From positions 64,001-128,000 of IMG/VR virus record IMGVR_UViG_3300034069_002177: a DNA stretch of 64,000 nucleotides; one strand, 5' to 3'. The first letter of the stretch is position 1, and each line of letters begins with the position of its first letter. The notes under the pieces were generated by a model, which saw only the letters and a program-made list of their open reading frames with translations, did not search any database and was not told the origin of the DNA. The translations under genes were made by a program, and so were the position numbers. Of the stretch, positions 7,733-9,499 are shown in pieces. The stretch is from a virus. Lineage: Duplodnaviria; Caudoviricetes.

Positions 7733-7806
7733 GGCGCGTTAGCACAATTGGTAGTTGCAGCACCCTTTCACGGTGCAGGTTACGGGTTCGAGCCCCGTAC
7801 GCGTCA
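7733..7806 (+). tRNA. trnE: tRNA-Glu(TTC)
   Basis: Loop CT-TTC-AC; 5-nt variable loop AGGTT. Confidence 0.92.
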
Positions 7807-7822
7807 CGTTTCTTGTTGGTAC

Positions 7823-7852
7823 TTGACAAGATAGGTAAGTCACCTGTAAGGT
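7823..7852 (+). promoter_or_regulatory. sigma70-type promoter
   Basis: TTGACA-18 nt-TAAGGT. Confidence 0.65.
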
Positions 7853-7867
7853 GATAGTAGTAAATAT

Positions 7868-7941
7868 GGCGCTGTAGCACAATTGGCAGTTGCATCGGTT
7901 TCTCAGACCGAAGGTTGCGGGTTCAAGTCCCGTCAGCGTCA
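7868..7941 (+). tRNA. trnE: tRNA-Glu(CTC)
   Basis: Loop TT-CTC-AG; 5-nt variable loop AGGTT. Confidence 0.9.
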
Positions 7942-8070
7942 CGATAACCCAAACGCTCCGAGGAATGTCGGAATCACTGGCGGGTTAGATAACTAACGAG
8001 AGACACTACGTAGCCTTCCTCAGGAGGTCTTTCGTCCAGAGTCGCCTACTGAGGCGGAAGCGACTACCAT

Positions 8071-8144
8071 GCCATCTTAGCTCAGTTGGAGAGAGCGACT
8101 GTTTGAAAAGCAGTAGGTCACCGGTTCGGCTCCGGTAGTTGGCA
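8071..8144 (+). tRNA. trnF: tRNA-Phe(GAA)
   Basis: Loop TT-GAA-AA; one acceptor mismatch. Confidence 0.88.
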
Positions 8145-8171
8145 CACTGGTTCCTTTTAGGACCACGTTAT

Positions 8172-8246
8172 ACCCTTGTAGTTCAGTAGAGATTAGGGCG
8201 CTTGTCGATGAGACAGGAGGCGGTGGTTCAAGTCCACCTGGGGGTA
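8172..8246 (+). ncRNA. non-canonical tRNA-like element (loop CG-ATG-AG)
   Basis: Acceptor ACCCTTG/TGGGGGT, AC stem CTTGT/ACAGG, perfect T arm GGTGG-TTCAAGT-CCACC; G33. Confidence 0.6.
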
Positions 8247-8363
8247 CGGTTGAGAGACTTTGCAAGGTCTCGATGCAAGTTCGGCGGGAATTGAACCCGT
8301 GCGGGGCGCAAGCTACGGTTGTCGTATGAGGAAGCTTACTCAGATAGTCTTCGCGTAGCACAT

Positions 8364-8436
8364 GCCTTTATAGCTCAGTTGGTAGAGCGCTTCGTTTACA
8401 CCGAAGATGTCGGGGGTTCGAGTCCCTCTGGAGGCA
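8364..8436 (+). tRNA. trnV: tRNA-Val(TAC)
   Basis: Cloverleaf; loop TT-TAC-AC. Confidence 0.95.
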
Positions 8437-8517
8437 CAAACGGTGAGAGCCACTGGTTCTTAGCCGTCTTATCTCTACATCAACATCCAATCTATAGATA
8501 CGGCGTTGCTGTAGGGT

Positions 8518-8591
8518 TCCCTGTTGCGACTAATGGAATATGTCGTCTTCACAAGAACGAAGAGATGCCAGTTCGACTCTGGTACGGGGAG
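8518..8591 (+). ncRNA. non-canonical tRNA-like element with 8-nt anticodon loop (ACAAGAAC)
   Basis: Acceptor TCCCTGT/ACGGGGA, D stem CGAC/GTCG, AC stem TCTTC/GAAGA, T arm GCCAG-TTCGACT-CTGGT. Confidence 0.6.
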
Positions 8592-8731
8592 CTTAGTGGT
8601 ACCGGCACAGGGTGTACAACCATCGTCGGTGCGGTCGGGAGTGATATCCCCTGACCAGTCGTGCTTGGAAGGCTGCGTAATGTAGTACGGGGTTCGATCC
8701 CCGTCATGAGCCACTTATACTTCTTCAAGGG

Positions 8732-8761
8732 TTGACCGGAATCAAGATGCCGTGATACCAT
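8732..8761 (+). promoter_or_regulatory. sigma70-type promoter
   Basis: TTGACC-18 nt-TACCAT just upstream of tRNA-Met. Confidence 0.6.
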
Positions 8762-8772
8762 TGAAGGCATAA

Positions 8773-8847
8773 TGCGGGGTAGGGCAGTTCGGTAGCCCGC
8801 CAGGCTCATAATCTGGAAGTCGCGTGGTTCAAATCCCGCCCCCGCAA
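8773..8847 (+). tRNA. trnM: tRNA-Met(CAT), initiator-like scaffold
   Basis: fMet-like D arm and loop CT-CAT-AA, but paired U1-A72 and no run of three G-C pairs in AC stem. Confidence 0.85.
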
Positions 8848-9069
8848 CGTTACAACGAAGATACAAACATCGAAGGGTTCTTGTATCGGGATTACTAGAA
8901 AGCGCAACCTGCGTGTAACTGGGTTGTGTTAGGTGGGGACCGTAAGGTTCGTGCCGACACCGGCAAGAGAACGAGACCTAGCGTGAGAGCGAGAGGTCAG
9001 GTGAATTGGTACTTCGTACCGCGAGAAGCCCGAGCTTAGATGCACACGTTCCACTTGCCGGTTTTGTTT

Positions 9070-9142
9070 GGGTCGTTAGCTCATCTGGTAGAGCGCTGCT
9101 TTTGCAAGGCAGAGGTGAGGGGTTCAAGTCCCCTACGATCCA
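9070..9142 (+). tRNA. trnA: tRNA-Ala(TGC)
   Basis: Near-identical to 5470-5542 apart from the acceptor stem; G3-U70; G48. Confidence 0.94.
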
Positions 9143-9242
9143 CGCTTCCTCTCCAATCACCATTCTCGGCTCATTACCTTGGATGGCGGAGAGCCCCCAC
9201 TTCGATACCGGTTACGGGGTGGGGGATAGAAGCAACCAATAT

Positions 9243-9316
9243 AGGGGTATAGCTCAGATGGTTAGAGCGCTTCGCTGATAACGAAGAGGTCTTCGGTTCA
9301 ATTCCGAATATCCCTA
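9243..9316 (+). tRNA. trnI: tRNA-Ile(GAT)
   Basis: Cloverleaf; loop CT-GAT-AA. Confidence 0.95.
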
Positions 9317-9346
9317 CTGCTCATTGTCACTTCTAGAATCTGGCGG

Positions 9347-9376
9347 TTGACAAAGAGTTACGACACACGATAAAGT
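9347..9376 (+). promoter_or_regulatory. sigma70-type promoter
   Basis: TTGACA-18 nt-TAAAGT. Confidence 0.7.
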
Positions 9377-9424
9377 GGTGGTCGCGGTAAACAGTCCGCA
9401 CAGGCTCTCAACATTGAGGGTTCT

Positions 9425-9499
9425 GGCGCATTAGCACAATTGGTTAGTTGCATCGCCCTTTCACGGCGAAGGTTACGGGTTCAAGTCCCGTATGCGTCA
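9425..9499 (+). tRNA. trnE: tRNA-Glu(TTC)
   Basis: Loop CT-TTC-AC; 5-nt variable loop AGGTT. Confidence 0.93.

Follow-up and report, generated by a model that had tools for sequence, protein, structure and literature searches.

How a mobile element can encode a CRISPR guide against tRNA-Glu genes and still carry three tRNA-Glu genes of its own is the question raised by this locus. The window (the whole stretch of DNA that was analysed, 64,000 nucleotides) comprises bases 64001-128000 of a 202,737-bp record (51% GC), itself part of a 654-kb contig. A first-pass annotation had proposed that the three Glu genes were rebuilt on a Gln-like scaffold and thereby escape the element's own guide. We predict that they do escape, but the most probable explanation (probability about 0.6) is that they belong to a conserved mobile-element tRNA-Glu family, the immunity of which would be a by-product of a design that predates, or is independent of, the guide. 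The features discussed are collected in Table 1.

Table 1. Positions of the tRNA genes, CRISPR arrays and cas operon in the window
Feature	Position	Strand	Details
tRNA-Gln(CTG), atypical	2845..2919	+	same core as the Glu genes, but U1-A72 and G73
tRNA-Lys(CTT)	6238..6312	+	same bulged D stem; U12-A23 replaces A12-U23 (compensatory)
tRNA-Glu(TTC), swapped core	7733..7807	+	ARAGORN, Rfam; D arm 7740-7759; variable loop AGGTT 7777-7781; G1-C72, G2.U71, A73
tRNA-Glu(CTC), same core as 7733	7868..7942	+	ARAGORN, Rfam; variable loop AGGTT 7912-7916
tRNA-Glu(TTC), same core as 7733, one extra D-loop base	9425..9500	+	ARAGORN, Rfam; variable loop AGGTT 9470-9474
Second array, five 20-nt spacers	12253..12519	+	inside the tRNA cluster
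Type I-E operon cas3, cas8e, cas7, cas5, cas6e	50277..57760	+	
Degenerate type I-E repeat 1	57766..57790	+	hairpin and 5' handle ending GGATGTTCCT; directly after cas6e
Anti-tRNA-Glu spacer, 20 nt	57791..57810	+	antisense to tRNA-Glu positions 52 to 33
Degenerate repeat 2	57811..57838	+	hairpin; end approximate

The tRNA cluster (899-17841) contains 64 tRNA genes and a tmRNA, a set that is otherwise near-complete; neither a GluRS nor a PF03354 terminase was found in the element record. The element's own tRNAs have at least three scored mismatches to each spacer of the second array, and the tRNA clusters of relatives also hide arrays of 20-nt spacers, the spacers being different (L445:11696-11920, L450:5509-5740 and, on the reverse strand, L069:about 5566-5700). 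Two Leu(TAA) genes (2309-2380 and 3700-3774) are only 72-75 nt long and have no long variable arm, and a tRNA-like sequence at 13161-13232 (ARAGORN '???'), the body of which is of Ala type and the anticodon loop 6 nt long, is probably a decayed Ala copy. The end of the tRNA array is flanked by an RtcB RNA ligase gene (20147-21493) and an HNH-like gene (19693-20190), an order kept in the relative L486; a role of this pair in tRNA repair is possible.

ARAGORN and Rfam find no clear Glu genes in the 202,737-bp record other than those at 7733, 7868 and 9425. All three are of Glu isotype, with a cloverleaf fold, a YUC anticodon, A37 and compensated stems, and all carry G1-C72, an antideterminant for GatCAB. 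The anticodon arm of 9425 is identical to that of host Glu at 12/14 positions, anticodon excluded. Their D arm reads TAGCACAATTGG-x-GTTGCA and is, as had been noticed, common to them and the Gln gene at 2845 (Gln-2845): 7868 is identical at 20/20 positions and 7733 at 19/20, while 9425 differs by its additional D-loop base. The pairing that best describes the D stem is G10-C25, C11-G24, A12-U23 and C13-G22 plus a bulged U, and the predicted folds of 7733 and 7868 give this form. The 5-nt variable loop that had been reported is likewise present in each gene. Its last base, T48, had been interpreted as part of an anti-guide change. Among the parsed tRNAs, 25 have A15:T48 and 46 have G15:C48 as the Levitt pair; T48 is the expected partner of A15, and an anti-guide explanation of it is therefore not needed.

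The scaffold itself is not Gln-like. Among IMG/VR contigs, 56 contain the D arm of the Glu genes: about 41 have it on Asn genes, 6 on Thr, 6 on Gln and 1 on Glu, and two have it at non-tRNA sites. It is thus neither typical of nor specific to Gln. Gln-2845 is itself atypical, because the other Gln genes of the window (Gln-2955 and Gln-3102) and Microbacterium Gln carry a different D arm; a gene of the Gln-2845 kind is also present in the cultured Streptomyces phage Comrade. Outside the core, the acceptor module of the Glu genes matches host Glu at 9/15 positions versus 4-5/15 for Gln-2845, the T arm matches at 14-15/17 versus 9/17, and the first pair is G1-C72 in all three genes rather than the U1-A72 of a Gln scaffold. 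Module comparison and D-arm distribution together rule out a Gln origin of the body. Only the tertiary core, made up of the D arm and the variable loop, is swapped. Recruitment of a whole Lys gene through an anticodon shift was also considered, as the Lys gene at 6238 has the same bulged D stem, and was rejected: Lys is not among the top acceptor or T-module matches and the tree keeps the groups apart. By these comparisons, Glu-type and Asp-type origins of the acceptor and T arms appear inseparable, Asp being equally close in some modules.

The swapped core bears directly on charging. The major determinants of Escherichia coli GluRS are U11-A24, U13-G22:A46 and the absence of nucleotide 47 (PMC9976931), and the element genes lack all three, with C11-G24, C13-G22 and a 5-nt loop. 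Charging efficiency is uncertain because these determinants are missing and because U11-A24 is common to host Glu and host Gln. GlnRS scored above cut-off in 0/61 Microbacteriaceae genomes, which implies a non-discriminating GluRS working with GatCAB; the one host Gln(TTG) that was read has a 5-nt loop. The element Glu genes are probably charged by such a GluRS. Bacterial GatCAB distinguishes U1-A72 from G1-C72 (PMC2811023; the rule is also given in PMC9976931), and Gln-2845 and the Glu genes fall on opposite sides of this distinction. It is very improbable that these are poorly charged or amidated tRNAs serving as decoys or mistranslating Glu codons with Gln. Such a function would agree with the loss of all three E. 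coli D-core identity elements and with a D loop in 7868 that equals that of Gln-2845, so that a D-loop antideterminant for GatCAB would be unable to separate the two. However, all 18 aligned family members have G1 and 16/18 have C72, versus U1-A72 on the Gln version, the stems are strongly compensated, and the element would be left with no other clear Glu gene in its near-complete set.

The guide is encoded next to a reduced type I-E system. All five cas genes score above the NCBIfam cut-offs (cas3 through its domain models); cas8e encodes 684 amino acids, exceeding the Cse1 model length, a separate cas11 open reading frame is absent from the operon, and neither cas1 nor cas2 was seen within it. 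The type I-E norm of spacers of ~32 nt in a regular array does not apply, as the spacers are 20 nt long and the repeats degenerate. The PAM of the anti-Glu spacer is AAC, from tRNA T-stem/T-loop positions 53-55. Cascade leaves every sixth guide position unread. Positions 6, 12 and 18 were left free as unread, so that 16 guide positions (1-19 minus these three) were scored; compared with the common host Glu(TTC) gene, the spacer has its mismatches at 6, 12, 18 (and 20), a pattern that agrees with the unread positions. The PAM and all 16 scored positions are matched exactly in >120 GTDB contigs, and at 122/123 guide-matched sites the anticodon is TTC or CTC; the exact targets include Glu(TTC) as well as Glu(CTC) genes. 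Unread position 18 (57808) falls on wobble base 34, and one guide can cover both genes.

An exact match is present in 39/101 Microbacteriaceae genomes, against a chance expectation of about 2e-5 per genome. Three relatives have a similar spacer at the same place, after cas6e; in L004 and L006 its position 8 is G, consistent with the CAGC variant of the loop that is frequent in Microbacteriaceae. With 1-2 mismatches, further guides of the element match Microbacterium Val(CAC), Arg(ACG), Pro(GGG) and Ala(CGC). Since the guides match Microbacteriaceae tRNAs, the host probably lies in or near this family; no close Cas7 of the element's clade was found in 401 Microbacteriaceae genomes.

Host-type Glu genes match the guide with 0/16 scored mismatches, versus 10, 13 and 10 of 16 in 7733, 7868 and 9425, all of which keep the AAC PAM beside the protospacer. 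The register had been said to break after the first four guide positions (ACGG), on account of the extra loop base and T48. This holds for 7733 and 9425, which match positions 1-4, but not for 7868, which matches only 1-3. The extra base does contribute, but the sequence of the loop matters too: if a 1-nt bulge is allowed, 5, 7 and 4 mismatches are left in 7733, 7868 and 9425. Within the seed (1-5 and 7-8), positions 5, 7 and 8 are mismatched in all three genes, as is position 4 in 7868, bulge or not. For E. coli Cascade, a PAM and five seed bases are the least that gives detectable binding, and interference needs extensive pairing (PMC5904413). With a PAM and at most four matched bases, the element's genes fall below this minimum and their immunity is well predicted, by analogy with a different Cascade. 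The escape proposed in the first-pass annotation is thus upheld as a prediction.

The 4-nt variable loop, stated earlier to be the bacterial norm for tRNA-Glu, was found in Glu genes of 151/151 Microbacteriaceae genomes sampled, and in 113/113 Glu genes parsed from the guide-target scan, which selected for such genes. A host Glu gene with a 5-nt loop was not found in the 151 genomes. Matches with 5-nt spacing in 45/151 genomes look like chance, and those traced were tRNA arrays of one bin and one odd gene of the genome G018. In the bin (G116, a Microbacteriaceae genome bin), divergent Glu genes are spread over three separate tRNA arrays (L319, L320 and L321), which are probably phage contigs. 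The odd gene (L322:245-317, in a genome of 927 kb) is called Glu(TTC) and combines a Glu D arm, an Asp-like 3' half and an AGGTC loop; it is possibly a recombination or att-site chimera, and two normal Glu targets are present elsewhere in G018.

Was the swapped core, then, selected by the guide? A search for Glu genes on this core gave no match in GTDB genome contigs, one in IMG/VR and 14 in metagenomes; the D arm was absent from 61 Actinomycetes genomes, and no close match to the three genes was found among cultured phages or plasmids. In the alignment of 18 members, 99.5% of stem cells are paired and 12/21 pairs show compensatory change. The D stem is invariant, in part because the search pattern demanded it; that pattern did not constrain the D arm's 5' half, yet positions 8-15 are invariant there as well. 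Nine members come from this element's family and nine from seven contig groups that share no stretch of >100 nt with it. Several of these outside contigs have the gene order Pro-His-Asp-Glu-Glu-Tyr-Phe-Leu, as do the Microbacterium phages A3Wally and Magritte.

One outside contig, G001, is a complete tailed phage of 124,209 bp with direct terminal repeats that carries the same Glu design. Its portal protein is 66% identical to that of Magritte, its nearest cultured relative, which has different Glu genes, and it matches the element described here at only two loci. Cas7 and Cas3 matches are absent from G001, the sole carrier of the design complete enough to show this. Mean identity is 0.77 in the outside group versus 0.85 in the element family (0.58 versus 0.81 in the acceptor stem), and this greater diversity favours an older origin outside the element family, without proving it. 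In a tree built on 75 columns the family forms an open fork, which leaves room for a transfer of the design from this element family to the phages.

Mismatch to the guide is also widespread among actinophages. In six cultured ones, 12 Glu genes have 5-11 mismatches to the guide and 7/12 have loops of 5-6 nt, and none of the six phages appears in the Cas7 search; at least 81 further Glu genes of viruses, parsed among the matches listed, combine a 5-nt loop with a variety of D arms. Predicted escape from this guide is the default for actinophage Glu genes. Two further Glu genes (L453:1114-1187 and L445:8355-8430) have 5-nt loops on other D arms, of GTTC/GAAC and GTAAT type, and are possible intermediates or independent core swaps.

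A relative of the element shows that the core swap is not required. ENA contig k141_1159787, which carries Cascade and a tRNA array about 40 kb apart, has a host-type Glu(TTC) gene with a 4-nt loop (L486:2087-2160, the same as L445:6363-6436) at the syntenic Met-Glu-Glu-Phe spot. This gene has three mismatches to the guide. Three compensated pairs separate it from its closest chromosomal counterpart, and each of them involves guide position 2, 9 or 11; a search of 301 genomes of the order gave no gene within one mismatch of it. It is the best hint that the guide selects for escape. The hint is weak, because the plasmid L081, which has no Cas3, drifts as well (3-5 mismatches) and because the relative's own spacer lies off the contig, which ends in cas5.

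A redesign driven by escape, in which the guide came first and selected re-cored over host-type Glu genes, with the phage copies as later transfers, is unlikely on this evidence. The swap removes the seed match in one step with the PAM kept, most Glu genes read from five family members have the core, and the Cascade-linked host-type copy is altered only at the three compensated pairs, and the tRNA-array plasmid L080, which has no Cas7, retains Glu genes that differ from the guide by only 1 mismatch. Yet contigs outside the element family have the design too, in more diverse form, and three substitutions are enough for escape, as in the element's other tRNA isotypes, which have ordinary bodies and for which 3-5 mismatches suffice to escape their guides. 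The claim that the genes were rebuilt to escape the guide is therefore not sustained: the design exists without Cascade, mismatch is the actinophage default, and a Cascade-linked relative keeps Glu on a host scaffold. Comparative evidence argues that the guide used a difference that already existed.

A broader consequence is conceivable, and we put it forward tentatively, as possible but doubtful: that the reduced Cascade silences or cuts the host tRNA-Glu genes and switches the cell to the re-cored tRNAs. Discrimination of self from non-self would then reside in tRNA architecture and be maintained by the guide, acquired host-type copies being mutated at seed positions as in L486.

The core might instead have a cause unrelated to the guide, such as evasion of host tRNA-directed defences (anticodon nucleases or toxins) or suitability for element-encoded processing, the guide acting on att sites or on rival elements with host-like Glu 3' halves. 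That phage tRNAs dodge host nucleases is a published idea (the accessible part of PMC10264068; PMC11555353), Glu genes with 5-nt loops are common in viruses by the count above, the protospacer spans the stretch from anticodon to T loop with an exact target in >112 viral contigs, and RtcB is encoded beside the array. However, published evasion involves changes in the anticodon loop, and the anticodon loops of 7733 and 9425 (CTTTCAC) equal that of host Glu(TTC); nor was a specific nuclease identified. We consider this explanation improbable as a whole, although it partly overlaps the preferred one in naming a possible original cause.

Under the preferred explanation, a conserved family with incidental immunity, the genes retain a T arm and an anticodon of Glu type, together with A73 and the Glu-type first acceptor pairs (G1-C72 and G2.U71), but their tertiary core is replaced by a module (the four D-stem pairs with the bulged U, A15:U48 and the 5-nt loop) that mobile elements also use for tRNAs of Asn, Gln and Thr. 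Where the host lacks GlnRS, its non-discriminating GluRS would charge these tRNAs with Glu, and G1-C72 would keep GatCAB from converting the product to Gln, so that Glu-tRNA is supplied. The reduced Cascade carries a fixed guide against host-type Glu genes, from which the element's genes diverge from position 5 on, through T48, the loop sequence and the 1-nt register shift, and they are predicted to escape stable binding and cutting. Immunity most likely came first, as a precondition: with no target site in the copies of the element itself, the guide was free to become fixed on this site. Selection against self-targeting may now help to keep the difference.

Compared with canonical bacterial tRNA-Glu (the E. 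coli augmented D helix and Microbacterium Glu(TTC)), the element genes have the same U/C-U-C anticodon with A37 and the same G1-C72; G2.U71 and A73 are as in Microbacterium Glu(TTC), and the T arm of both element TTC genes is identical to it at 15/17 positions. They differ in having C11-G24 for U11-A24, C13-G22 and a bulged U for U13-G22, nucleotide 47, and A15:U48 for G15:C48. In the literature searched, the coverage of which was incomplete, neither this tRNA-Glu design nor an immune tRNA set of this kind was found described. A Glu family without the three textbook D-core identity elements offers a natural test of relaxed recognition by non-discriminating GluRS, and the pair of 7868 and Gln-2845, which share their core exactly and differ in first pair and anticodon, is a ready-made test of GatCAB discrimination.

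The Glu genes of cultured actinophages (Issimir, Comrade, NootNoot, A3Wally, Magritte and Wakanda), compared alongside the tRNA arrays of actinobacterial elements (PMC5966550), are likewise array-encoded, far from host genes, often with a 5-6-nt loop, and unmatched by the guide. In contrast, 0/12 have this D arm, Comrade carries the core on Gln(CTG), and none of these phages showed a Cas7. The findings are also relevant to the open question of what makes phage tRNAs differ from host ones.

Element-encoded CRISPR systems with guides tied to tRNA loci are known from the homing crRNAs of CRISPR-associated transposons (CASTs; PMC11656645) and from Cas12r of Thermus Lalka phages (bioRxiv 10.64898/2026.04.20.719267). 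According to the accessible parts of these two sources, however, CASTs mostly lack Cas3 and their guides direct insertion, and Lalka spacers target elements integrated at tRNAs rather than the tRNA gene; an immune replacement tRNA set is described for neither in those parts.

The preferred explanation would account for how a Cas3-armed Cascade can be aimed at a near-universal tRNA site, where the PAM is unavoidable, without self-attack. The logic of PAM and seed (1-5, 7-8) is that of E. coli type I-E Cascade-Cas3 (PMC5904413), but the element's spacer is 20 nt long instead of 32 and its target is a housekeeping RNA gene. Self-protection would come not from the PAM, which lies in the conserved T loop and is present in the element's own genes, but from the divergence of the tRNA body.
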